DNA of 64,000 nucleotides from positions 1,562-65,561 of the forward strand of contig JAHYJM010000005.1 in NCBI GenBank assembly GCA_019428945.1, written 5' to 3'. The notes beneath the pieces are model-generated. The model was not told where the DNA came from. It saw only the letters and a list, made by a program, of their open reading frames with translations, and ran no database searches. The translations under genes and the position numbers were made by a program. Positions 9,699 through 57,782 of this stretch are shown in pieces. Every line of letters starts with the position of its first letter. Positions within the stretch are counted from its first letter, which is position 1. This DNA is from Bacillota bacterium. GTDB taxonomy: Bacteria > Bacillota > Dethiobacteria > DTU022.

Positions 9699-11465
9699 AT
9701 GCGGCGTGCAGCCGATTTTGTGACAACTAAGCCGGTAATACTCGGAAGGGAAGCCAACGTTGAAAAAGTTCTTGATATTTTACTTAAGGCTGAAGATGGT
9801 TTAATTTGTCTGGGCAAAAACGGGATAATCAACCAGGTTATAACCTGTGAATCGGCTTTAGGTTCCATTAAAAACGCTTCAGGCAGTCGGAAACTGACTG
9901 CTGCCGATCTGGCGTTGAAGAAATTGGAAACTACCGGTACTGATACGTTTTGGCCCAATTTTATCGATAAACTTAATAACAACGGGATTGTGGCTGTTTT
10001 TGATTCGAACAAAACTATAATTGGAGTAATAACAATTAACAGTATTCTGAAAGAGCTGGCGGGTAAGACATTGGAGCTGGAACGAGAAATTGATGCAATT
10101 ATTAATTTTACATCTGACGAGATATTTGTAGCCGATGGTGACGGCAGGGTGTTGAGGGCTAATTCTGTATTTGAAGATAATTTTGGCGTCAAACTCGATT
10201 CCGTAATCGGCAAAAATGTTAATGAACTTGAAAAGAAAAAGATCTTCACACCATCTGTTACCAGGTTGGTTATCGATAAAAAGAGCACTCAAACAGTAAT
10301 TCAGTCCCGCCGCGATGGAAGGAAACTTTTAGCTACAGGTACCCCGGCTTTTAATGAAGACGGGTCAGTGTTCAGGGTTATTGTAAATACAAGAGATATT
10401 ACAAAGCTGAACAACTTAAAACAGCAGCTTGAAGAAGCGGAGTTGTTAAAAAACCGTTACCAGCAGGAACTGATTGAACTGCGGCAGGGTTACCTGCACA
10501 GTGGTGAAATTGTGGCTTCGAGTCCGGTCATGCTGGATCTCCTGAAAGTCGCCACTAAAATAGCTGCAGTTGATTCCACAGTGCTGCTTACAGGTGAATC
10601 AGGGGTGGGTAAGGGAATGATAGCCCGCTACATTCATAACACCAGCCCCCGCGCCGACAAACCTTTTACAGTCGTTAATTGTGGAGCGATTCCGGAAAAT
10701 CTTCTTGAAAGCGAGCTTTTCGGTTATGCCGGAGGCGCTTTTACAGGCGCCCGGCGTGAAGGAAAAATTGGTAAGCTGGAACTTGCTAACGAAGGGACCC
10801 TGTTTCTGGATGAAATAACCGAGCTTCCACTTAATCTGCAGGTTAAACTGCTGCATGTAATCCAGGAAGGAATAATCAGCCGTATTGGCGGAACCCGTGA
10901 GATAAAACTCAACCTGCGCTTTATTGCCGCTACAAACCGCGATATTGCCGGCCTGGTGGAGGAAGGCAAATTTCGTGAAGACCTCTATTTCAGGCTTGAT
11001 GTAATACCCTTAATAGTACCTCCTCTTCGGGAGAGACATGAAGATATTAAAGCCCTGGCCGGGCAGTTTTTAAGCAGACTTAACAGACGTTATCAGAAAG
11101 ATAAGTATTTCAACTCTGAAGTATATAGTTTCCTTGAGGAATATAACTGGCCGGGAAATGTTCGTGAACTGGAAAACCTGGTTGAAAGAATGATGATTGT
11201 AGTAGACAGCAGTGAGATAGGAGCAATCCATCTACCCCGGCGACTGACGGGAATTGAACAGGCGGAGATTCCCAAAAAACCGGCCATAAAGCTTGAGCCC
11301 TTAAAAGAGGCAAAAGAGAGTCTTGAACGTAGGCTGCTTATCGAAGCTCTTCGTGTTTGCAGGACAACATATGAAATTGCAGAGATTCTTAAAATAGACC
11401 AGTCAACGGTAGTACGCAAATTGAAGAAGTATAACCTGGTTACCGGGGGGCACGAAATAGATTAA
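9699..11465 (+). CDS. Sigma-54-dependent transcriptional activator (bEBP) with N-terminal CBS-like and PAS sensor domains (RocR/AcoR-like)
   Basis: AAA+ sigma-54 interaction domain with GESGVGKGMIARYIHNTSPR, the GAFTGA-like GGAFTGA motif, and a C-terminal Fis-type HTH (TYEIAEILKIDQSTVVRKLKK). Confidence 0.9.
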   Translation: MRRAADFVTTKPVILGREANVEKVLDILLKAEDGLICLGKNGIINQVITCESALGSIKNASGSRKLTAADLALKKLETTGTDTFWPNFIDKLNNNGIVAVFDSNKTIIGVITINSILKELAGKTLELEREIDAIINFTSDEIFVADGDGRVLRANSVFEDNFGVKLDSVIGKNVNELEKKKIFTPSVTRLVIDKKSTQTVIQSRRDGRKLLATGTPAFNEDGSVFRVIVNTRDITKLNNLKQQLEEAELLKNRYQQELIELRQGYLHSGEIVASSPVMLDLLKVATKIAAVDSTVLLTGESGVGKGMIARYIHNTSPRADKPFTVVNCGAIPENLLESELFGYAGGAFTGARREGKIGKLELANEGTLFLDEITELPLNLQVKLLHVIQEGIISRIGGTREIKLNLRFIAATNRDIAGLVEEGKFREDLYFRLDVIPLIVPPLRERHEDIKALAGQFLSRLNRRYQKDKYFNSEVYSFLEEYNWPGNVRELENLVERMMIVVDSSEIGAIHLPRRLTGIEQAEIPKKPAIKLEPLKEAKESLERRLLIEALRVCRTTYEIAEILKIDQSTVVRKLKKYNLVTGGHEID

Positions 11466-11493
11466 TGAAAAGCAACTGAAAATCCAACGGTTT

Positions 11494-11530
11494 GATGTGT
11501 AAATGCATTAAAATGATGTGTAAATGCATT
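11494..11530. promoter_or_regulatory. Two direct copies of GATGTGTAAATGCATTA, 20 bp centre-to-centre; candidate upstream activating sequences for the sigma-54 activator
   Basis: Exact 17-nt repeat at 11494-11510 and 11514-11530. Each contains the palindrome AATGCATT. They lie ~120-150 bp upstream of the -24/-12 element. Confidence 0.45.
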
Positions 11531-11646
11531 AGAGCTGGTGATATTTTTCTCAAATAAAAAAGTACATAAATCAATTATCCTGGGATAAGGCCTTAATTAG
11601 AGGCCTTATTCTTACTTTAAAGTTATTGGAGCCAGAAAAACAAATA

Positions 11647-11662
11647 TGGCACCAATATTGCA
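11647..11662 (+). promoter_or_regulatory. Sigma-54 (-24/-12) promoter TGGCAC-N5-TTGCA
   Basis: Exact consensus tggcaccaatattgca. It sits ~45 nt upstream of the aminotransferase ATG, with RBS GAAAGGGG in between. Confidence 0.75.
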
Positions 11663-11707
11663 CTATAATATGTTAAGAAACTCACAAGCAGAAAGGGGTT
11701 TAACTTT

Positions 11708-13051
11708 ATGAACCAGAAACCAGTTGGACCGGACTACGGGCCGGGACCGAACTCGCAGGAACTGATGAAATTGCGCGACGAAAATGTAGCCCGCGGCATA
11801 TCATACGTGATGCCGGTATTTGTCAAAGAAGCCAAAGGAGCGATTATTACCGATGTAGACGGCCGGGAATATATTGACTTTGTCAGCGGCATCGGGGTTT
11901 CGAACTTCGGCAACAACTACCCGGCCGTAGTCGAAGCGATTAAGAACCAGGCTGACCAGTATTTACACACCTGCTTCATGGTGACCATGTATGAACCTTA
12001 CGTAAAACTGGCCGAGAAACTGAATAAGATTACGCCCGGGGAATTTCAGAAGAAAACCGCCTTTTTCAACAGCGGGGCCGAAGCGGTTGAAAATGCCGTC
12101 AAGCTCTCGCGCCGCTACACGAAAAAGACAGCGATGATTTCGCTGGAGTGCGCCTTTCACGGCCGTACCCTGATGACAATGACCCTTACCTCGAAAGTAA
12201 AACCCTATAAATACGGCTTTGGACCCTTTGCCACCGACGTATACAAGATTCCGTCGGCCTACTGTTACCGCTGCCGCTTCGGGATGACCTACCCGGCCTG
12301 CGACCTGCACTGCGCCAGGTACTTAGAGCAGTTCTTTGCTGTTGAATGCGCCGCAGACAACGTTGCCGCCGTTATCGCCGAACCGGTCCAGGGCGAAGGC
12401 GGCTTTATCGTTCCCCCTAAAGACTACTTTAAAGTGCTCCATGAAATATGCCGGAAAAACGATGTGCTTCTAATCTTAGATGAAATCCAATCCGGCTTCT
12501 ACCGCACCGGAGGCGCCTTTGCCAGTGAGCACTACGGCATCGCCCCTGATTTGATCACCATGGCCAAATCGCTGGCCGGCGGAGTGCCGATCAGCGCGCT
12601 GACCGGCAGGGCCGAAGTGATGGATGCCGCAGGGCCCGGAGAAATCGGCGGTACCTATGGCGGTAACCCGATCGGCTGTGCCGCCGGACTGGCCGTGATG
12701 GAAGCGATCGAGAAAGACGATATTGCCGGCCAGGCGAAAAAGACAGCGGAACTTACAGCGACCCGGTTAGATGAAATGGCGGAGAAATATTCACTTATCG
12801 GCGAACATCGCGGTTTGGGCGCCATGCGGGCGATTGAGCTGGTAAAAGACAAAGCCAGCAAAGAGCCGGCAGCCGACGCGGCTAAGGCGATCGTCAAACG
12901 CTGCCATGAACGCGGCCTGATCATTATCACCGCCGGGATCTTTGGCAACGTGATCCGCTTCCTGATGCCCGTTAATATTACGGAGGAACAGCTAAACCGG
13001 GGCCTTGATATCCTGGAAGATGCTATTGCTGAAGAGCAGGGAGGAAAGTAA
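11708..13051 (+). CDS. Class-III PLP-dependent aminotransferase (GabT / omega-amino-acid:2-oxoglutarate aminotransferase family)
   Basis: 447 aa. Family-typical motifs: FNSGAEAVENAVKL, ILDEIQSGFYRTG, and the PLP lysine region DLITMAKSLAGG. Confidence 0.85.
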   Translation: MNQKPVGPDYGPGPNSQELMKLRDENVARGISYVMPVFVKEAKGAIITDVDGREYIDFVSGIGVSNFGNNYPAVVEAIKNQADQYLHTCFMVTMYEPYVKLAEKLNKITPGEFQKKTAFFNSGAEAVENAVKLSRRYTKKTAMISLECAFHGRTLMTMTLTSKVKPYKYGFGPFATDVYKIPSAYCYRCRFGMTYPACDLHCARYLEQFFAVECAADNVAAVIAEPVQGEGGFIVPPKDYFKVLHEICRKNDVLLILDEIQSGFYRTGGAFASEHYGIAPDLITMAKSLAGGVPISALTGRAEVMDAAGPGEIGGTYGGNPIGCAAGLAVMEAIEKDDIAGQAKKTAELTATRLDEMAEKYSLIGEHRGLGAMRAIELVKDKASKEPAADAAKAIVKRCHERGLIIITAGIFGNVIRFLMPVNITEEQLNRGLDILEDAIAEEQGGK

Positions 13052-13054
13052 AAT

Positions 13055-14851
13055 TTGTATGGAGTTTACGGCAAGCTTTTAATCGTTGATCTCAGTAAGA
13101 TGGACATCATCGAAAAAGAGCTTGAGCAAGAAGTATTTTATGAATTCCTGGGAGGCAGGGGCCTGGGCGCTTACCTGCTGGCAAAAATGCTGGCACCGGG
13201 TGAGGATCCGCTCTCTCCGAACAACGTTATTGTTTTTGCTACTGGACCTGCCACTGATTCAGGCCTGGCTCCTGCCTCCGGTTATGGTATTTTTACAAAA
13301 TCACCGGTAACCGGTCTTTTTACAGAAGCCTATGCGAAGGGATACTTGCCGTCGTTAATTAAGAGGACGGGTTATGATGCAATTGTTATAACCGGCGCGG
13401 CTTCGCATCCGAGTTTCATTACTATTTCTGAACTGGGTGTTAATTTCTATGATGCTGTAGAAACATGGGGAATGGATACAGATACAGCTGAAGGATCTAT
13501 TCTTAATGTTGTTGGTGCAACTGATTCAGAAGTGCTGGTAATCGGGCCTGCCGGGGAAAATATGATTGCTTCTGCCTGCTTAAAAAGTAATCGCCACAGA
13601 AGTTTCGGACGAGCTGGATTAGGGGCTGTTTTCGGATCGAAAAATTTAAAAGGCGTCGTTTTTAGGGGTGGCGCTAAAGCTGAGCTTTATGAAAGTGAAG
13701 CTTTTACTGGCTGGAATGATCAGTTCATTAGACGTTGTAATAATGAGGAAGAAGCGAAGGCGATAAAATTTTTTAGTATACCTTCGCTTGTAACCGTTGC
13801 CAATACAAGAGGCTTTTTTACTTCCGGTTATTGGGCTGAAGGACGGCTTGAGGGATGGGAAAAAATTGTTGAATCTTACCGCTCGGGTAAAGTGAGTGCA
13901 AAGGGTTTGAGTTGTCATAGTTGTTTATTAAGCTGCGACCAAGAAACCTTTATAAACTATGATCATTGCGGAAGAGGAGTTAAAGGACTGGATTACAACT
14001 ACTTAAGCGCGATTGGCGGCCTTTGCCGCATTACCAGCCTGGAAGATATAGTCAGCCTTGTAGACCTCTGCGAACAGCTCGGTATTGACCCTGTCAGCGC
14101 CGGGAATATAGCATCATTTGCTATTGAAGCCGGGTTAAGAGGCAAATTGGATAACCCGCCTCTTTATGGCAACTCTGATCGAATTGCCTTATTTTTGGAA
14201 TCCGTTGCATATAGGAAAGGTGAAGGAGTCATCTTTGCCGATGGTATCAGGGAAGCCGCCGCCATGTTGGATATGCCTGACCTTGCAGTGCATTTCAGAG
14301 GGCTTGAACCTGCCGGCTTTGATCCCAGGGTTATTAAAATAGTCGCCCTGTCGCATTTAGTATCGGGGTTCGGAGAATCAAATCCGGAGAGTTTCTATCT
14401 CTCCGGCCTCGGTTATGGCCTTTTTGATACAGAAAAGAGGAATAACCCTGCCCGTATTTTTGTTGAATACGAAGATAAAATGAATATTATTGACAGTCTT
14501 GTCTTCTGCCGAAACGCCCATAAGCTTATTCAATGGGAAAATTTAATAGCAGTTGTATTCCTTCTTACCGGAAAGCGTTACAGCGCAGCCGGCCTTCGCG
14601 CTGTTTCGGCCCGAAATCTTTCAACAATCAGGCTCTTCAATCTGAGCGAAGTCACTACGGGTATGGGAGACAGCCTGCCCTCCAGATTTATAGAAGAGCC
14701 GATAAATAATGAAAAAGATTTGGTAAAAGTTGAAGAATTGGAGCTGATGCTTAAAGATTATTATTTACTCAGAGGTTGGAATGAGAAAGGTATACCCCCT
14801 GCGGGGAACAATAATCAACAATTATTAAGGAGGACAATACAATGTCTGTAG
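13055..14851 (+). CDS. aor: Aldehyde:ferredoxin oxidoreductase, tungsten-dependent AOR family
   Basis: 598 aa. AOR N-terminus MYGVYGKLLIVDLS and the [4Fe-4S] ligand motif CHSCLLSC. Tungstate transporter genes are in the same window. Confidence 0.85.
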   Translation: MYGVYGKLLIVDLSKMDIIEKELEQEVFYEFLGGRGLGAYLLAKMLAPGEDPLSPNNVIVFATGPATDSGLAPASGYGIFTKSPVTGLFTEAYAKGYLPSLIKRTGYDAIVITGAASHPSFITISELGVNFYDAVETWGMDTDTAEGSILNVVGATDSEVLVIGPAGENMIASACLKSNRHRSFGRAGLGAVFGSKNLKGVVFRGGAKAELYESEAFTGWNDQFIRRCNNEEEAKAIKFFSIPSLVTVANTRGFFTSGYWAEGRLEGWEKIVESYRSGKVSAKGLSCHSCLLSCDQETFINYDHCGRGVKGLDYNYLSAIGGLCRITSLEDIVSLVDLCEQLGIDPVSAGNIASFAIEAGLRGKLDNPPLYGNSDRIALFLESVAYRKGEGVIFADGIREAAAMLDMPDLAVHFRGLEPAGFDPRVIKIVALSHLVSGFGESNPESFYLSGLGYGLFDTEKRNNPARIFVEYEDKMNIIDSLVFCRNAHKLIQWENLIAVVFLLTGKRYSAAGLRAVSARNLSTIRLFNLSEVTTGMGDSLPSRFIEEPINNEKDLVKVEELELMLKDYYLLRGWNEKGIPPAGNNNQQLLRRTIQCL

Positions 14852-46793: not shown

Positions 46794-47579
46794 TCAATAG
46801 ACCATTTTCCCTTCTACAAAAAGCCGGGTACTTTCATTGTCAGGTTTCGAGAAAATTTTTTCTGTAGGGCCCATTTCAACTATTTTACCCTGGTTTATGA
46901 ATATAACCTGGTCGGCTATACGCTTTGCCTGAAAGACGTTGTGGGTGACCATGATGACGGTGATTGCTTTATCACGGGCCATTTTGATGATCATCTCTTC
47001 AATTAATTCTATATTGCCCGGATCAAGGTTGGCTGTTGGCTCATCAAGAAGCAGTATTTCCGGCTCGAAAGCAACCGCCCTGGCGATAGCTACTCTTTGG
47101 GCTTCACCCCCGGAAAGTGTTTCTGCCCGCCGGCTGGCCAGTTCAGTCATTCCAATCTGATCGAGAAGGGAGTTTACCCTGATTTCAATTTCCTTTTTAT
47201 TGAAACCGCGGGCTTTGAGACCGTAAGCTATGTTATTCCAGACGGTATCCTTAAATAAAAGGGTTTTTTGAAAGACAAGAGCCATATTGCGCTGTAGGGT
47301 TAGCTTTCCCAGCCCATTTTTTGGTGCAGGCTCGCCATTATATAGGATTTCCCCACTGCTTTGATCCGTTAGCATGTTTATAATTCTTAGCAGGGTGCTT
47401 TTACCGGCGCCGCTGGGTCCGATAACTCCATATATGCAGCCTTTGGTAAGAATGAGCTCATTAATATAAAGTACTTCTTCATCATATATCTTTCTGACTG
47501 CTTTCATTTCAAGCAGAATATTTTCACAGTTAATTTTTTTTGCCTCCTTTCTGGATTGTATAAAGGACTGAATTGACAA
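46794..47579 (-). CDS. tupC: Tungstate/molybdate-type ABC transporter ATP-binding protein (TupC-like)
   Basis: Walker A GPSGAGKST, ABC signature LSGGEAQRV, Walker B LLLDEP. It is in an operon with TupA/TupB-like genes. Confidence 0.8.
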   Translation of the reverse strand: MSIQSFIQSRKEAKKINCENILLEMKAVRKIYDEEVLYINELILTKGCIYGVIGPSGAGKSTLLRIINMLTDQSSGEILYNGEPAPKNGLGKLTLQRNMALVFQKTLLFKDTVWNNIAYGLKARGFNKKEIEIRVNSLLDQIGMTELASRRAETLSGGEAQRVAIARAVAFEPEILLLDEPTANLDPGNIELIEEMIIKMARDKAITVIMVTHNVFQAKRIADQVIFINQGKIVEMGPTEKIFSKPDNESTRLFVEGKMVY

Positions 47580-48228
47580 TAAAGGAAATCATCAGCAGAA
47601 TAATTCCCAATCCGATTGCCAGTTCAAAATTGCCTTTTCTTGTTTCGAGGACTATAGCGGTTGTCATAACTCTGGTGTGGCCTTCAATATTGCCGCCGAC
47701 GATCATAACCGCGCCAACCTCTGCCACTACCCTGCTAAAACCGGTGATTACTGCTCCCAGGATAGCATAGCGTGATTCTTTAACGACTGTCCATGCCGCC
47801 AGCGCAGAACCTGCACCAAGAGATCTGGCCGTTTCTTCAATTTCTCCTCCTTTGGCCCTGATCCCGACCATAGTCAGACCGATCACAATTGGTGAGGCAA
47901 GAAATACCTGGGCGATGATCATTGCTGATGGAGTATAAAGCAGACCAAGCACTCCAAGCGGTCCCTGCCTTGAGAGAATTAAGAAGATGATTAAACCGGC
48001 CACAACCGGAGGCATGCCCATAAATGTAAAGATGATTTTATTGAAAAAGCCGGTCTTTTTTTCTTCCTTTAAACCAAGTAAAGTACCAATGGGCACTCCG
48101 ATTAGAGTAGCTAATAAAATAGCAGTAATCGATACACGCAGTGATAACAGAACAATTGTCAGCAGATCCGGGTCAAATGATATGATCAGGCGAAGCGCTT
48201 CCAATAAACCTTCATATAGTCGGGACAA
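47530..48228 (-). CDS. tupB: Tungstate ABC transporter permease (TupB-like)
   Basis: 232-aa permease with 5-6 transmembrane helices. It lies between tupA and tupC. Confidence 0.8.
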   Translation of the reverse strand: MSRLYEGLLEALRLIISFDPDLLTIVLLSLRVSITAILLATLIGVPIGTLLGLKEEKKTGFFNKIIFTFMGMPPVVAGLIIFLILSRQGPLGVLGLLYTPSAMIIAQVFLASPIVIGLTMVGIRAKGGEIEETARSLGAGSALAAWTVVKESRYAILGAVITGFSRVVAEVGAVMIVGGNIEGHTRVMTTAIVLETRKGNFELAIGLGIILLMISFIVNSVLYTIQKGGKKN

Positions 48229-48445
48229 TAACTTACCTCCATTAAAAAAAATAGGCGCGCTCCTGAAGCATGATCTAAACTGTTTATAATACAGGCAGGT
48301 CAGAGGAGCGCACCCAGCTCGTATGGCTTATTTAAATTTGTCTCCCTGTAAAGGATTTATTTCTTATTATTTTTATGACGTGAAAGCTTTTTATAAAAAT
48401 CTGTAACAGATAAAGTCTTTTATAAAAAACTCACTTGCTCATTAA

Positions 48446-48474
48446 CCGGCGCTCCTGCATCGCAGGAGCGCCGG
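48446..48474. other. Perfect 13-bp palindromic hairpin (CCGGCGCTCCTGC-ATC-GCAGGAGCGCCGG) immediately 3' of tupA, inside the 250-nt tupA-tupB gap
   Basis: Read directly. A second imperfect hairpin sharing the GCGCTCCTG/CAGGAGCGC arms lies at ~48244-48300. Confidence 0.5.
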
Positions 48475-48480
48475 ACCTTT

Positions 48481-49380
48481 TTATTCCAATCCGTAACCTG
48501 GGAAGAAGAGTGTCTCGCCGTTAACCTGGTAAGAATTGATCAGGTTTTGCCCTTCTTCCGACATGAGGAATTCTACGTACATCATGGCATATTCGTACTT
48601 AATGCCCTCATGTAATTCAGGATTGACAGCCATGACGCCATACTGGTTAAAAAGAACCGGATCGCCTTCCAGCGCTATAACCAGGTCAATACTGTCTTTC
48701 ATTGAAACATAAGTGCCGCGGTCGGTAAGAGTATATCCGAGACGTTCATTGGCATGGTTAATTGTATCGCCCATACCCTGGCCGATTGACTCATACCAGC
48801 TTTCGCCTGCCGGATCAATACCGGCTGCTTCCCAGAGACGCAGTTCCATCCGGTGCGTTCCAGAATCATCGCCCCGTGATACAAAGATAGCGCCGCTGTC
48901 GGCAATTAAAGACATCGCTTCTGCTGCAGTTGTTACACCACCCACGCCAGCTGGATCCTCAGCAGGGCCAACAAAGATAAAGTCATTATACATGACATCA
49001 TAACGGTCTACAAAATAACCATCCTCTACGCCCTGCAGTTCTGATCCCCGATCGTGAACAAGCAAAACGTCAGCATCTCCACTGCGGCCGGTTTCCAACG
49101 CGGCCCCGGTGCCCTGGGAAACCACCCTGACTTCGAGGCCAGTTTGTTCTGTAAAAATTGGGTTAAGAAAATCGAGCAGGCCTGAATCATAGGTGCTAGT
49201 TGTGGTAGCCAGGATAATAAAGTCATCAATTAGCTCAACTTCTTCTTCCGGTGTGGTTTCTTCTTCAACCGGTTCTTCAACCGGGGCTCCTTCTTCTGCG
49301 CATCCGGCAAAGAATAAAAGTGCTGCCATAAGCATTAAACCAAATAAAAGCTTAAACTGAATTGAACTACGGTTAAACAT
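48481..49380 (-). CDS. tupA: Tungstate-binding periplasmic lipoprotein TupA
   Basis: Lipoprotein signal LLFFAGC and the TTTS oxyanion-binding motif (ILATTTSTYDSGLLDFL). Confidence 0.8.
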   Translation of the reverse strand: MFNRSSIQFKLLFGLMLMAALLFFAGCAEEGAPVEEPVEEETTPEEEVELIDDFIILATTTSTYDSGLLDFLNPIFTEQTGLEVRVVSQGTGAALETGRSGDADVLLVHDRGSELQGVEDGYFVDRYDVMYNDFIFVGPAEDPAGVGGVTTAAEAMSLIADSGAIFVSRGDDSGTHRMELRLWEAAGIDPAGESWYESIGQGMGDTINHANERLGYTLTDRGTYVSMKDSIDLVIALEGDPVLFNQYGVMAVNPELHEGIKYEYAMMYVEFLMSEEGQNLINSYQVNGETLFFPGYGLE

Positions 49381-49440: not shown

Positions 49441-49570
49441 AGATGGTCGTGGCATACAACCACGAGAGCCTTCTTTCCGCAACGGGAGGCACAGCTGTTT
49501 CCGGCCGTACCCCAGCCTGCTATTCATGACGCTGCAAGATCGCTTTAGAATGAACAGGTCGAAGGTAAAA
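49441..49570 (-). ncRNA. Structured 5'-leader element E1 directly abutting the tupA RBS; candidate Moco/Tuco-class riboswitch (translation-control type)
   Basis: Shares the conserved blocks CCTTCTTTCCGCAACGGGAGGC, GTTTCC and GATCGAAGG with E2 and E3. It is followed on the minus strand by AAGAGGAGAG (RBS) and the tupA ATG. Confidence 0.45.
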
Positions 49571-49621
49571 CTTTTAGAAATGCTTTATTCCTTAACACTT
49601 CACCCCCCTTGTTTGGTCAAC

Positions 49622-49795
49622 AAAAAAAATCGCAGTTTCCCATGGGTAAGTGCGATTTTAATAACTTTCCTTGATCCTTCTTTCCGCAATGGGAGGCCCG
49701 GCCGTTTCCAGCTAAACCCTGTCGTCCACCTTTCGTAGCAACATGTAGTGCTTTAGATACAGTGGATCGAAGGTTATTATTTAATTGTTAGCAAG
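49622..49795 (-). ncRNA. Structured element E2 with intrinsic-terminator expression platform; candidate Moco/Tuco-class riboswitch (transcription-termination type), in tandem upstream of E1/tupA
   Basis: ~85% identical to E3 over ~150 nt. The minus-strand hairpin ATCGCA..TGCGAT (49629-49656) is followed by U8. Confidence 0.45.
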
Positions 49796-49890
49796 CACAC
49801 TATATCAGGATATTTAAACCATGTCAACTTTGGCAGGTGATCAAAACCGGGCTGGTTTTGCCAGGTTGTTATAAAAAAATATCCTGATTT

Positions 49891-50766
49891 TTAGGCTTTA
49901 CCTACCTTTCCCTTATCCTCTATGGCAGCAGGAACATCTTCACGGTAGATGGTGGAACCGACTTCTCCTCCATCAAGTGCACTGCTAATACTTCCCGGTA
50001 CAAGCCCGTTGATAATCCGGATCTCTTTCAAGTTTTTGGCTGAAAGCAGGTATTCAAGTACGGCTCTTTCAATTACCAGGTCTTCCAAATCTCTTTCGAT
50101 TAAATCTTTTGCGCTGATTCTGGGAATCAACTCCGCATTTGAGTCAATTTTAGGATTATCCGTATAGAGCCCATCGACATCTTTGACATAGATACATTGC
50201 TTTGCGCCGATGACTTCTGCGAGCAAAAATGCTCCCACATCTGTGCGGTTCTGAGGCAATCGTCCTTCAGTCGGGAGCGGCTCCCAGTATCCGTAGGGAG
50301 GCATGCCGTGAACAACAGGAATGCATCCCTGGGCAAAATAGGCACCCAGCTTGGGTATGTCATCGTGGCCGATTTTAATTCCCCCGTAAGGGCTAAGCAG
50401 GGTGGAAAGGATTAACGCATTCTGTTCAGATACGCTCTGACCCAACTTTGCTATTATACCTGTGGGCATTCCCAGCTCCATGGCTATAGCGTAAACGTGG
50501 CGGGAACGAGTGCCTCCGCCAGTAGAGATTATCATTTTATGCTTTTTTGCGTTACTGACGATCTCTTCTATAATTGGTATTACTGCTTTAGCTCCGATGT
50601 CGGTAATACTTTGACCGCCGACTTTCAATACGCTGACATCGGGGAATACCTTGAAAGGTTCACCATATTCAAGACTTTTTAAAAAAGACTTACCAACCAG
50701 TGATTCACCCATCAGCTTGCTTTTCAGGTGAAGCCTTTTACTGTCTTTTTCCCGAATTAAAGCCAT
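49891..50766 (-). CDS. Amino-acid-kinase (AAK) superfamily protein (UMP-kinase / isopentenyl-phosphate-kinase / Mo-storage-protein-like fold)
   Basis: The N-terminal nucleotide-binding motif VLKVGGQSITD and MIISTGGGTRSRH. 291 aa. Last gene of the element-controlled operon. Confidence 0.7.
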   Translation of the reverse strand: MALIREKDSKRLHLKSKLMGESLVGKSFLKSLEYGEPFKVFPDVSVLKVGGQSITDIGAKAVIPIIEEIVSNAKKHKMIISTGGGTRSRHVYAIAMELGMPTGIIAKLGQSVSEQNALILSTLLSPYGGIKIGHDDIPKLGAYFAQGCIPVVHGMPPYGYWEPLPTEGRLPQNRTDVGAFLLAEVIGAKQCIYVKDVDGLYTDNPKIDSNAELIPRISAKDLIERDLEDLVIERAVLEYLLSAKNLKEIRIINGLVPGSISSALDGGEVGSTIYREDVPAAIEDKGKVGKA

Positions 50767-50818
50767 ACTTAGTCATTATCCTTCCAGGTTAATAAATTTA
50801 GGTTGCACAATGAACACA

Positions 50819-51043
50819 TTAATCATCATCTTCATCATCTAGATCGTCATTATGTTTGCCGGCTTCAAGGTAAACCACTTCTGCGCCTACAGCATCGGCT
50901 ATCTGCTCAACTTCCATCTTCCGAATATGCTTAATTTTGAACTTTACGTCAACGTCAGTTACTGCTACTATGGCGAAACGCGGTTTTTTCTCGCCATCTT
51001 TAACCTTTCGGCGTTCGCGAATAAAAATTTTCCCGCTACCCAT
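50819..51043 (-). CDS. Small protein (74 aa) with a poly-acidic C-terminal tail (DDLDDEDDD), function unknown
   Basis: ORF with RBS GGAGG, sitting between two co-oriented genes. Confidence 0.5.
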   Translation of the reverse strand: MGSGKIFIRERRKVKDGEKKPRFAIVAVTDVDVKFKIKHIRKMEVEQIADAVGAEVVYLEAGKHNDDLDDEDDD

Positions 51044-51129
51044 CTCATCACCTCCTAAATAGCATTATTAAGAATAGATTTAACTTATTATAATATATTA
51101 AATTCTTTATGTCACAATTATATCTATTT

Positions 51130-51885
51130 TTAATGATGCCGGCGAAGGTATTCCATGGGACAGGTTTGCCAGGAAGCCTGCTTATTGATATCATGATTCG
51201 GAACAACCAATAAAACTTTACGGTTGTTGATTAAAACGCCCTTCACTTTTTCCCCTAGTTTAATAACTGTATCATCTGAAAGTATCATGCCGGATAAATC
51301 CTCAACTGAGTCTATGGCAGTAGAATTTAGAAGAACCTTAACTGAAGTTGTTTCACCCGGTTTACCCAGTTCATACTTTCCCCTAAAACGCCCATCGCTG
51401 CCGCTTAATCGTAAACCTACCCCGGCCAGAGCTCCAATTACTCCATGGCCGGTTCCGCCATGTTCTGATAATCGTATATTTAGTGATGCAGCGAGATCAT
51501 AGGCGCTCGACTTGCTTAGGACTTCAACCTTAGCTCTACGGCCAAATCCAACTAAAGCCTCTTTTTGTTGATCGGAGAGAATATCAGCATTTGCCAGACA
51601 AAATCCCGGATCAGATCCGTTAGCTCTATATTGAACGAGAAGTTTGGGAAATAACTTTAAGAGCATTTCGGACCTTTTGGTATCCACTTCTGTCGTCACT
51701 GACATGGCGCTGTTATGAGAAGTATAAGGGATGGAAGGGTGAACGAAAAGCTGATGCCTCACCACTCCTGAAAAAGCGATCCCACTGTTAGCCTCAATTT
51801 CACTGACAATCTTTGTCAGCAGGCGCCCTGTTCCCATTTCTGTTGTATGGTTGTCCGTGTCATCTATGCCAATGATAACTTTCAT
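51130..51885 (-). CDS. Conserved hypothetical protein with N-terminal IGIDDTD motif (possibly TiaS-type kinase-domain-like), first gene after element E3
   Basis: 251 aa, no transmembrane segments. MKVIIGIDDTDNHTTEMGTGRL. The TiaS resemblance is recalled and low-confidence. Confidence 0.6.
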   Translation of the reverse strand: MKVIIGIDDTDNHTTEMGTGRLLTKIVSEIEANSGIAFSGVVRHQLFVHPSIPYTSHNSAMSVTTEVDTKRSEMLLKLFPKLLVQYRANGSDPGFCLANADILSDQQKEALVGFGRRAKVEVLSKSSAYDLAASLNIRLSEHGGTGHGVIGALAGVGLRLSGSDGRFRGKYELGKPGETTSVKVLLNSTAIDSVEDLSGMILSDDTVIKLGEKVKGVLINNRKVLLVVPNHDINKQASWQTCPMEYLRRHH

Positions 51886-52039
51886 TGTTTTATTCCACCA
51901 TCACTATCAGTTTTAAGCAAAAAATAGAGCTGATTTTTTTGCCGGCAAACTTTCCAACTACTTTGCAGTCAGAAAAACCATTGTTTTTTAAGTATTCCCT
52001 GCTAAACAAAATATTTCCTCCAGGGCATAATTAAAGACT

Positions 52040-52200
52040 AAAAAATCGCATCTTCCCGGTGAGAAATGCGATCAATTTATACTTGTGGTGATCCTTCTTT
52101 CCGCAACGGGAGGCGCGGCCGTTTCCAGCCGAACCCTGTCGTCCACCTTTCATAGCAGTATCAAGTGCCTTAGAAACAGTAGATCGAAGGTGATACATAT
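52040..52200 (-). ncRNA. Structured element E3 (aptamer-like region plus hairpin/U6 terminator) upstream of the 51885 operon; candidate Moco/Tuco-class riboswitch
   Basis: Conserved core GTGGTGATCCTTCTTTCCGCAACGGGAGGCGCGGCCGTTTCCAGCC...GATCGAAGG. The terminator ATCGCA..TGCGAT (52045-52072) is followed by U6 on the minus strand. Confidence 0.45.
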
Positions 52201-52299
52201 TTGATTGTTAACTACACTATGCATTTTATAACAAATATCTTAATTGGTCAAGAAAATTGATCAATATTACTTTGTTTTGGGTAGTTTTTTTGGGTTTGT

Positions 52300-57422: not shown

Positions 57423-57782
57423 TGTACTCGAGGTGCCATATAGATTTTGATGAAGGGAAGCAGTAAGCAGGAATGTTTTCTCAGAGAGCCGGCGCCTGGT
57501 GAAAACCGGCAGGCGGAACTGCTGAACTCGTCCCGGAGAAGCAGCGGTAAATTTTTAAAACGCTGCCGTAAACCGGCGTTAACGGTAGAAAGAGGGCAGC
57601 ATATCATGGGGCTGTGGCGCAGGGGGAGCGCGCTTCCTTGGCATGGAAGAGGCCGCGGGTTCAATTCCCGCCAGCTCCACCACATTTTGTCTGACCAATA
57701 AGGGTGGTACCGCGGGTATGAATCCGTCCCTTGACAGGGCGGATTTTTTATTTGGTGAAACATATGGAGACGGAGGTTTAAT
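57423..57782 (+). promoter_or_regulatory. T-box riboswitch leader of leuS (Leu, CUC specifier), interrupted by a tRNA gene
   Basis: The 5' part reads GAUGAAGGGAAGCAGUA (Stem-I base GA motif), ...GAACUCG (specifier-loop candidate) and AGAGAG/GGUGAAAA (distal elements). The 3' part carries the T-box sequence AATAAGGGTGGTACCGCGG (57697-57715) and the terminator ATCCGTCCCT/AGGGCGGAT+T6 (57722-57749). The RBS GGAGACGGAGG precedes the ATG. Confidence 0.65.
57608..57683 (+). tRNA. tRNA-Ala (anticodon GGC)
   Basis: Cloverleaf folded by hand. 7-bp acceptor with a G3:U70 wobble, discriminator A73, D-stem GCGC/GCGC, anticodon stem CTTCC/GGAAG, loop UUGGCAU (GGC), T-stem GCGGG/CCCGC with TTCAATT loop, and an encoded CCA. 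Confidence 0.85.

Follow-up and report, generated by a model that had tools for sequence, protein, structure and literature searches.

A single-subunit relative of the molybdenum storage protein and its two partners beside tungstate-uptake genes of a Bacillota bacterium: a putative tungsten-handling module

Introduction

The molybdenum storage protein (MoSto) of Azotobacter vinelandii, which is built from the subunits MosA and MosB (PDB accession codes 2OGX, 4F6T, and 6GU5), stores tungsten (W) as well as molybdenum (Mo), and its loading requires ATP (PMC6448029, PMC8154434). A 2019 paper regarded both its function and its sequence as unique and knew of no homologues (PMC6448029). Literature searches, which covered open-access papers, returned only one other tungsten storage protein, Tub from Eubacterium limosum, a cytoplasmic tungstate store with a TOBE domain that assembles into a hexamer and holds eight mononuclear tungstates without the use of ATP (PMC11980592). 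Here, we report on a trio of genes from a Bacillota bacterium (GTDB lineage Bacteria; Bacillota; Dethiobacteria; DTU022), one of which encodes a relative of MoSto. The trio is located next to tungstate-uptake (tup) genes on a stretch of 64,000 nucleotides (nt) of contig JAHYJM010000005.1 (NCBI GenBank assembly GCA_019428945.1, positions 1,562 to 65,561 of the forward strand). We refer to this whole stretch as the window, and the coordinates given below for its features are positions within it.

A further point of reference for this locus is the RF01055 riboswitch class. According to Regulski et al. (2008, PMC2408646), those members of the class that lack P3 are correlated with the use of the tungsten cofactor (Tuco) and are proposed to sense it, while control of gene expression by an OFF switch was demonstrated for the element from E. 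coli. P3-less aptamers, their tandem arrangement, and expression platforms of the terminator type are reported there for S. wolfei and Geobacter.

A preliminary description of the locus, made from the DNA sequence and its open reading frames (ORFs), proposed that an amino-acid-kinase-fold protein of 291 amino acids (aa), an acidic mini-protein of 74 aa, and a protein of 251 aa form an operon behind a Tuco-like leader and serve as a candidate module for W/Mo storage or cofactor handling. All three ORFs are present on the minus strand, and the motifs VLKVGGQSITD, STGGGTRSRH, and IGIDDTDNHTTEMGTG were found. The functional part of this proposal is supported by our analysis, in which neither an unrelated kinase identity of the 291-aa protein nor a loss of the linkage to Mo/W genes was encountered. 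We hold with high confidence that the trio is a W/Mo-handling module of the MoSto family.

The MoSto-Like Protein

The last gene of the trio (49891..50766, minus strand) encodes the 291-aa protein. Its amino-acid-kinase nucleotide site, anticipated in the preliminary description, is reflected in a Pfam assignment that goes only as far as the generic AA_kinase family (PF00696, E 1e-26); a search against the sequences of the PDB is far more specific. The best solved relatives are MosB (E 2e-68) and then MosA (E 1e-45) of A. vinelandii, and the similarity to both is colinear over the whole chain. The next relatives are far weaker, with UMP kinase reaching E 5e-10 at best and isopentenyl-phosphate kinase also lying far behind. 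The protein is 44% identical to MosB over 260 residues that align without gaps, and 35% identical to MosA of Azospirillum, which was taken from a plasmid record and served as the MosA comparator for motifs and identity values. Its sequence identifies the 291-aa protein as a homologue, of the beta type, of the Mo/W storage protein of A. vinelandii. The motifs of the beta subunit (KxGG, TGGGTRSRH, GMPPY, RTD, VKDxDGLY) are kept in it and in its relatives, whereas the MosA protein of Azospirillum deviates at several of them (AFPPY, RAD, VED). The Met residue of the GMPPY motif aligns with Met-beta149 of MosB; this residue was reportedly proposed by Bruenle and co-workers in 2019 as the gate through which molybdate enters once a 'molybdate kinase' step has taken place at the ATP site of the beta subunit.

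The NCBI names of homologues of the 291-aa protein, 'uridine kinase' or 'uridine monophosphate kinase', and the amino-acid-kinase fold itself would be compatible with an ordinary small-molecule kinase, a UMP kinase or another enzyme of this superfamily, that is misplaced beside the tup genes. We regard this explanation as extremely unlikely. All NCBIfam models for PyrH, isopentenyl-phosphate kinase, and aspartate kinase score far below their cut-offs, the PyrH models TIGR02076 and TIGR02075 reaching only 63.1 bits (cut-off 158) and 30.7 bits (cut-off 243.9), respectively, so that a bona fide PyrH identity was rejected. Furthermore, the E values of MosB and of the best UMP kinase structure are 58 orders of magnitude apart, in favour of MosB, and the linkage to tungsten genes described below is conserved. 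In the annotation of the Joint Genome Institute (JGI), close homologues already carry the name 'molybdenum storage protein', and the bare homology is therefore not new.

A second MoSto-like gene was found neither in the 64-kb window nor in any of 80 MoSto-anchored loci (0/80) that were collected in a metagenome scan and whose MoSto-like proteins are 57-86% identical to the 291-aa protein; a second MoSto subunit encoded nearby was therefore rejected. By analogy to its UMP-kinase relatives, the 291-aa protein probably forms a homo-hexamer. On the Azospirillum plasmids, mosB and mosA are adjacent, and there is no gene for the mini-protein. The family of the 291-aa protein is large, a threshold of E 1e-20 yielding 2682 cluster representatives, and it is present in syntrophs, Geobacteraceae, and other anaerobes.

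The Mini-Protein

The middle gene of the trio (50819..51043, minus strand), which is preceded by a GGAGG ribosome-binding site, codes for the 74-aa protein, referred to in the following as the mini-protein. A word-index search returned only 15 relatives of it, and it took an exhaustive profile search to reveal the family. At 50% identity, it comprises 171 representatives, and almost all of these are stand-alone proteins of 50-130 aa. The N-terminal motif GKIFxRERRKVxxGEKKPR is invariant in this family, and so is one His residue. The name 'acidic mini-protein' used in the preliminary description is therefore only partly apt: the 74-aa ORF is real, but its acidic tail is not conserved across the family, and the alignment led us to reject it as a family feature. 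No relatives outside this family were detected in searches of Pfam, NCBIfam, and the sequences of the PDB; likewise, Foldseek found no match in the PDB better than E 0.5 for an AlphaFold2 (AF2) model of moderate quality (predicted local distance difference test score, pLDDT, 74).

The constancy with which the mini gene accompanies the MoSto-like gene is evident from the MoSto-anchored loci, 74 of which (out of 80) carry it directly upstream. Among the remaining six, two lack the upstream room, and four (L111, L148, and L162 among them) have no adjacent mini gene by the automatic test used; three of these four contain a mini-like match further upstream, and L099 is the only locus without any such match. 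In S. wolfei, the mini-MoSto pair stands alone, and in the Geobacteraceae the order of the two genes is MoSto-mini. The single-subunit form of MoSto is almost never encoded without the 74-aa protein as its neighbour.

The TiaS-Related Protein

The first gene of the trio (51130..51885, minus strand) encodes the 251-aa protein, which consists of a kinase domain (approximately residues 1-165) and a small beta-rich C-terminal domain. Its matches to described families are all below the respective cut-offs (PF22641, E 1.8e-4; TIGR03280, E 3e-12; NF040849, E 2.9e-10). The TiaS model NF040849 yields 39.3 bits against a cut-off of 600, with only positions 1-154 of its 422 positions matched, and TIGR03280 yields 46.3 bits against a cut-off of 255.8, with only model positions 134-282 matched. 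Structural modeling points in the same direction as these weak and consistent sequence matches. The AF2 model of the protein, calculated from an alignment of 26 sequences, has a mean pLDDT of 91.9, and the only structures that Foldseek retrieved with it at high confidence are those of TiaS (3AMT, 5XOB, and 3U02), with a probability of 1.0 and a root-mean-square deviation of 3.3-3.5 Å over about 160 residues. The guess that the 251-aa protein might carry the TCKD domain of TiaS, raised among the checks proposed in the preliminary description, has thus been substantiated.

In the phmmer alignment, residues D8, D9, T10, and D11 of the 251-aa protein fall on the DDTD motif of TiaS, and T19 falls on Thr18, which we take to be the autophosphorylated residue of that enzyme. 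D8, D9, D11, and T19 are invariant in 120 of 120 ungapped members of the family, which we refer to as the TCKD family and which comprises 2169 proteins at E 1e-3 or better. Further residues and motifs (R43, Q45, Y54-T-(S)-H-N-S, S91-D-P-G-x-C, and H142-G-G) are essentially invariant among the 122 family members that were clustered and aligned and that fall into two deep clades. The tRNA-binding domains of TiaS (ferredoxin-like, OB, and zinc-ribbon) are absent from the 251-aa protein. With the TCKD fold and the catalytic residues present and these domains missing, the model and the alignments lead us to view the 251-aa protein as a kinase domain of the TiaS type to which a small C-terminal domain is added, and not as a TiaS.

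To our knowledge, the only characterized TCKD enzyme acts on tRNA, an activity that is also apparent from the titles of the PDB entries. The 251-aa protein could accordingly be seen as a TiaS-like modifier of tRNA or of leader RNA, whose position among Mo/W genes reflects nothing but co-regulation; one might even speculate that a Cys-rich 71-aa protein encoded next to TCKD genes elsewhere is a zinc ribbon akin to the C-terminal domain of TiaS. We consider such an RNA-directed role very improbable, given the missing RNA-binding domains, the partial match to NF040849, and a genomic context that consists almost exclusively of Mo/W uptake and cofactor genes. In addition, the equivalent modification of tRNA is carried out in bacteria by TilS.

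Gene Neighbourhoods

The full trio, in the order TCKD-mini-MoSto, is found in 44 of the 80 MoSto-anchored loci, often as part of the larger arrangement TupA-TupA-TupB-ABC(TOBE)-TCKD-mini-MoSto, so that the linkage of the trio to Mo/W genes, asked about in the preliminary description, extends well beyond the window. A separate set of 80 genome loci was anchored on the TCKD gene. In this set, the TCKD gene is most frequently the last or next-to-last gene of operons for a FecCD permease, an ABC ATPase, and a Peripla_BP_2 protein; these operons are often preceded by a gene for a small secreted protein with an Oxidored_molyb domain and often trailed by that of the Cys-rich 71-aa protein. A second arrangement, MoaE-TupA-TupA-ABC(TOBE)-MoSto-mini-TCKD-small71, is characteristic of gene clusters of the Geobacteraceae. 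Taken together, the operon neighbours of TCKD genes comprise tup genes, moaA, moaC, moaE, moeA, ThiS/ThiF-like genes, MOSC genes, and the FecCD-type importer. The context of the family thus consists almost exclusively of operons for Mo/W uptake or cofactor synthesis, and the TCKD protein is a member of the Mo/W regulon.

The clustering of the 122 TCKD proteins revealed one deep clade that is exclusively linked to MoSto (38 of 38 sampled members), and two further MoSto-linked lineages, the subclade that contains the protein of the window and the Geobacter type, are nested among FecCD-linked members. The linkage to MoSto was hence acquired or kept repeatedly, in at least three TCKD lineages, and this repeated association argues for a functional coupling of the two proteins.

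The same data can be read differently, with mini and MoSto as one unit and the TCKD protein as another that serves uptake and not MoSto by processing any W/Mo species that importers of the Tup or FecCD type deliver, the two modules having been joined by chance. The mini-MoSto pair does occur alone in S. wolfei; 49 of the 122 TCKD genes directly follow FecCD-ABC-Peripla_BP_2 genes, many of them being followed in turn by the gene for the Cys-rich 71-aa protein, which is missing from the window; the TCKD gene of the Geobacter type has a riboswitch of its own; and in the window, a promoter-like site lies between the TCKD and mini genes. These points are opposed by the direct adjacency of the TCKD gene to the mini-MoSto pair in more than half of the MoSto-anchored loci (the 44 with the full trio) and by the exclusively MoSto-linked clade and the recurrence of the linkage in three lineages, all of which speak for functional coupling. 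We therefore judge a chance union of two modules to be rather unlikely, albeit a serious possibility.

Several features of the neighbouring operons deserve to be recorded in their own right. The Cys-rich protein of about 71 aa, which has the pattern C-x~20-SCYNCRYRRW-x4-F-x-C, is encoded after the TCKD gene at 10765-10980 of locus L082 and in about 40 other loci (for instance, at 8767 in L018 and at 8762 in L036), and no family match was found for it. Position 6194-9976 of L082, as well as many loci between L004 and L081, contains a P3-less riboswitch followed by genes for a 156-aa secreted Oxidored_molyb protein, the FecCD/ABC/Peripla_BP_2 (type II) importer, and the TCKD protein. For the substrate of this importer, NCBIfam returned only generic matches of the siderophore and B12 types; the importer may provide a third route of W/Mo uptake or serve the salvage of a cofactor or chelate. 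At 11145-13932 of the same Petroclostridium locus (L082), the TCKD operon is followed by genes for an SrpI-like (family 2 encapsulin-type) protein with a cNMP-binding domain and for a cysteine desulfurase.

Riboswitches and Transcriptional Organization

The trio is preceded by a P3-less aptamer (52078..52201, minus strand) that matches RF01055 with 65.5 bits (E 1.6e-13), well above the gathering score of 36, and that reaches 105.6 bits with the covariance model R1. It is followed by an intrinsic terminator (52040..52073, minus strand), a hairpin plus U6 with a minimum free energy (MFE) of -15.8 kcal/mol and a z value of -3.3 against shuffled sequences, and a sigma-70-like promoter (TTGACC-17-TAAAAT; 52223..52251, minus strand; 10/12 in a consensus scan and a pattern match only) is located about 20 nt upstream of it. 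The Tuco-like leader postulated in the preliminary description is thus present.

Two further P3-less aptamers form a tandem pair in front of tupA. The first (49661..49784, minus strand; RF01055, 61.2 bits) has a hairpin plus U8 downstream of it (about 49659..49620), and its expression platform, like that of the aptamer before the trio, is of the terminator type and has the architecture of an OFF switch. For the second (49454..49576, minus strand; RF01055, 55.9 bits), the downstream segment CCAUCUUUCC pairs in the MFE fold with GGAGAGUGG in the Shine-Dalgarno region of tupA (weak z value of -1.1), and this pairing would mask the Shine-Dalgarno sequence, which suggests that this riboswitch acts by translational control. 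In the RF01055 alignments of all three aptamers, model positions 1-135 are covered and the P3 positions are deleted. The tandem pair and its leader are preceded by a sigma-70-like, TG-extended promoter sequence (TTGACA-17-TATAGT; 49799..49827, minus strand; 11/12 in the consensus scan).

The tupABC genes are positioned directly downstream of the trio on the same strand (49380..46794), behind the two riboswitches, in agreement with the co-localization noted earlier. They encode a tupA-like tungstate-binding lipoprotein (48481..49380, minus strand; PF12849, E 3e-42), a tupB-like permease (47530..48228, minus strand; NF038017, 242 bits, above the cut-off), and a tupC-like ABC ATPase (46794..47579, minus strand; PF00005, E 8e-31) with WtpC- and PstB-like matches. 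The TupA model NF041772 is the sole NCBIfam match of the tupA-like protein (E 2e-63), the translation of which contains a lipobox and a TTTST motif, and no ModA match was found in NCBIfam at E below 0.1.

As regards the proposed operon, the three genes are oriented in the same direction, the intergenic gaps are short (86 nt between the 251-aa and 74-aa genes, 52 nt between the 74-aa and 291-aa genes), and a terminator scan of the locus found no convincing terminator between them. This part of the earlier claim stands; its qualification comes from a strong candidate promoter within the trio, ahead of the 74-aa gene (GTGACA-17-TATAAT; 51087..51115, minus strand; 11/12 in the consensus scan, again a pattern match only), which could split transcription. 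The last two genes may therefore also be transcribed on their own, which would agree with genomes such as that of S. wolfei, in which mini and MoSto form a pair that stands alone. The 150 nt that separate the riboswitch terminator from the beginning of the 251-aa gene contain a 39-aa ORF with a TTG start and a GGAGG site (51890-52009, minus strand), which may be there by chance.

Leaders of the P3-less type also precede other members of the 251-aa family; for the trio, a co-occurrence with Moco leaders had been singled out for inspection in the preliminary description. A covariance model was built from 13 P3-less aptamers and applied to 1.17 Mb of TCKD-anchored loci, in which it found 72 riboswitches. 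A P3-less riboswitch on the strand of the TCKD gene precedes this gene by fewer than 400 nt in 12 loci and stands at the head of its operon in 18 more. Of the 66 loci whose upstream sequence is long enough, 30 thus have such a riboswitch upstream. Triple tandem P3-less riboswitches precede tupA-tupB-ABC on two Syntrophomonas contigs (L071, 11927-12430, minus strand; L098, 5032-5535, minus strand); they are divergent from a mini-MoSto pair and match the triple set known for S. wolfei from the work of Regulski et al.

A Proposed Function for the Locus

We suggest that the locus is a unit for the acquisition and sequestration of tungsten that is repressed at high and expressed at low cofactor levels and is driven by ATP, with the partners of the MoSto-like protein acting as outlined below. 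We place moderate confidence in this interpretation as a whole. With predicted OFF-switch leaders in front of both gene sets, a scarcity of the tungsten cofactor would release the switches, and the importer and the trio would both be expressed. TupABC would then import tungstate, and a homo-oligomeric MoSto-like cage without an alpha subunit would phosphorylate the oxyanion with ATP and push it into the cavity, as has been proposed for MosB, so that scarce tungsten would be trapped inside the cell. For the partners, we infer the following roles. The 74-aa basic protein would be a stoichiometric subunit that may close or line the cage and may supply the basic and His ligands, the part that falls to the alpha subunit in Azotobacter. 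The TCKD-like enzyme would use ATP on the oxyanion, or on a stored or imported tungsten species, and thereby activate or mobilize it for insertion into molybdopterin. The invariant residues specific to its family (Ser, Thr, His, Arg, Cys) are of a kind that binds oxyanions, and this, together with the ties of the family to two unrelated types of importer and to MoSto, suits a role between uptake and insertion.

Several observations weigh against this interpretation. The cluster ligands of the A. vinelandii protein are Glu129, His140, and His156 of the alpha subunit (PMC8154434); the corresponding positions of the 291-aa protein are occupied by Gly, Tyr, and Gly, and MosB lacks these ligands as well, so that the deposition of polyoxometalates is not simply transferable to the 291-aa protein. 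A second, distal MoSto subunit may, moreover, be encoded elsewhere in the genome. The assignment of P3-less riboswitches to Tuco is a correlation, ligand binding never having been directly shown even for the type example (PMC2408646). In the closest relatives of the locus (L002 and L086), the trio is divergent from tupABC and a riboswitch is present only on the tup side, which led us to reject the idea that a leader before the trio is conserved in them; upstream riboswitches are, in general, rare among the MoSto-anchored loci. For most members of the TCKD family, there is no MoSto gene in the vicinity, and the function of the TCKD protein is therefore not dependent on MoSto. With regard to tungsten versus molybdenum, it should be noted that the TupA and TupB proteins stay below the cut-offs of their dedicated models (NF041772, 214 bits versus 400; NF041773, 168 bits versus 320). 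Finally, a depot that is switched on at low cofactor levels follows an unusual logic, one that scavenging or delivery fits at least as well.

The last point leads to the main rival of the sequestration unit, a machine for delivery and activation instead of a depot. In this alternative, the beta-like MoSto protein would chiefly be a tungstate kinase or pump that channels or concentrates tungstate for cofactor synthesis, the mini-protein would be an adaptor, the TCKD protein would perform a second ATP-dependent activation, and little or no polynuclear cluster would be stored. The missing alpha-type cluster ligands would be explained in this way, as would the joint de-repression of the trio and the importer at low cofactor levels. 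Gene order provides further arguments, since the mini-MoSto pair directly follows a 409-aa ORF in L040 that is MoeA-like as read from its sequence alone, and comes after MoaE and Tup genes in loci of the Geobacter type. On the other hand, the only characterized member of the family forms a cage, the gate and the nucleotide motifs of the beta subunit are fully conserved in the 291-aa protein, and the single-subunit family has conserved His residues of its own (H134 and H153) that could ligate clusters. We consider such a delivery machine unlikely, and we note that the regulatory logic of the locus fits scavenging or hoarding, or delivery, better than a depot for surplus metal.

The sequestration unit can be extended into a bolder proposal, which we put forward only tentatively and think less likely to be right than wrong by a wide measure: the trio might be a hitherto unrecognized ATP-driven tungsten machine of anaerobes in which a beta-only, homomeric MoSto pump or cage is combined with a 74-aa basic subunit and with the first bacterial member of the TiaS-fold kinases that does not act on tRNA, an enzyme that would activate or mobilize the metal of the cage and would also serve a second W/Mo uptake route, of the FecCD type. 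If this were true, the TCKD enzyme would be the missing general step between tungsten uptake and cofactor insertion. Even in its more modest form, a module that works as we envision would offer an entry into how anaerobes that depend on tungsten store this scarce metal and set it free again, how an alpha subunit can be replaced, and what a TiaS-type kinase does outside of tRNA modification. It would also provide candidate functions for three large families whose members are currently annotated as 'uridine kinase' (one family) or 'hypothetical protein' (two families).

Other Features of the Window

A homologue of a sigma-54 activator is encoded at 10089-11438 (plus strand); it is 36% identical to an activator with MimR_N, GAF, and Sigma54 domains that is found among Mo-cofactor genes in Petroclostridium and in loci of the Geobacter type. 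A T-box leader (57441-57734, plus strand; 111.8 bits with the Rfam model) is situated upstream of a gene for a LeuS-like synthetase. The leader carries an insertion of 98 nt that separates the stem III region from the antiterminator and holds a complete tRNA-Ala(GGC) including CCA (57608-57682); it is unusual for a tRNA gene to lie inside a T-box leader.

Comparison with Known Systems

The regulatory setting of the window resembles the published Moco/Tuco regulon in its P3-less aptamers, its tandem pair, and its terminator platforms. In the accessible part of the paper on this regulon, only 'other genes of unknown function' are mentioned, and neither MoSto-like genes nor those of the mini and TCKD-like proteins are listed by name (PMC2408646). 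More generally, we did not find the beta-only MoSto architecture, the mini and TCKD partners, or the linkage to tungsten genes and riboswitches described in the open-access literature, and the make-up of the trio points to a putative way of hoarding or mobilizing tungsten that has not been described before.

Two described proteins share features with the 251-aa protein. It has in common with TiaS, the archaeal tRNA(Ile2) agmatidine synthetase, the TCKD fold, the DDTD motif, the Thr18/T19 position, and the motif GxGxIGALAxVG. In contrast to TiaS, it is bacterial, comprises 251 instead of about 420 aa, is found in a Mo/W context, lacks the tRNA-binding domains, and belongs to a family with invariant motifs of its own (YT(S)HNS, SDPGxC, HGG). 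Methanogenesis marker protein 11 (Mmp11; TIGR03280) is the best NCBIfam match of the 251-aa protein, which aligns with its TCKD-like C-terminal half and is devoid of the N-terminal half; Mmp11 is itself uncharacterized.

Tub from E. limosum is similar to the role proposed here for the trio in that it is a cytoplasmic tungsten store that feeds tungsten enzymes in an anaerobic Firmicute (PMC11980592). The two systems differ in that Tub has an unrelated fold, whereas the 291-aa protein appears, from its motifs, to be of an ATP-binding, MoSto-like type and has additional partners.

The closest described system is MoSto of A. vinelandii, with which the 291-aa protein shares the fold, the nucleotide motifs of the beta subunit, the Met residue of the GMPPY motif, and the link to Mo/W. 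Instead of an adjacent mosB-mosA pair, the window contains a single gene, and the cluster ligands of the alpha subunit are absent from its product. Furthermore, systems of the type found in the window have a constant 74-aa partner that is missing from those of the proteobacteria. They belong to strict anaerobes and lie beside tup genes and Tuco-type riboswitches, while the characterized MoSto proteins are those of aerobic diazotrophs. In contrast to the view of MoSto as a protein without known homologues (PMC6448029), a beta-only form of it is widespread in syntrophs, Geobacteraceae, and other anaerobes, where it is tied to tungstate uptake.

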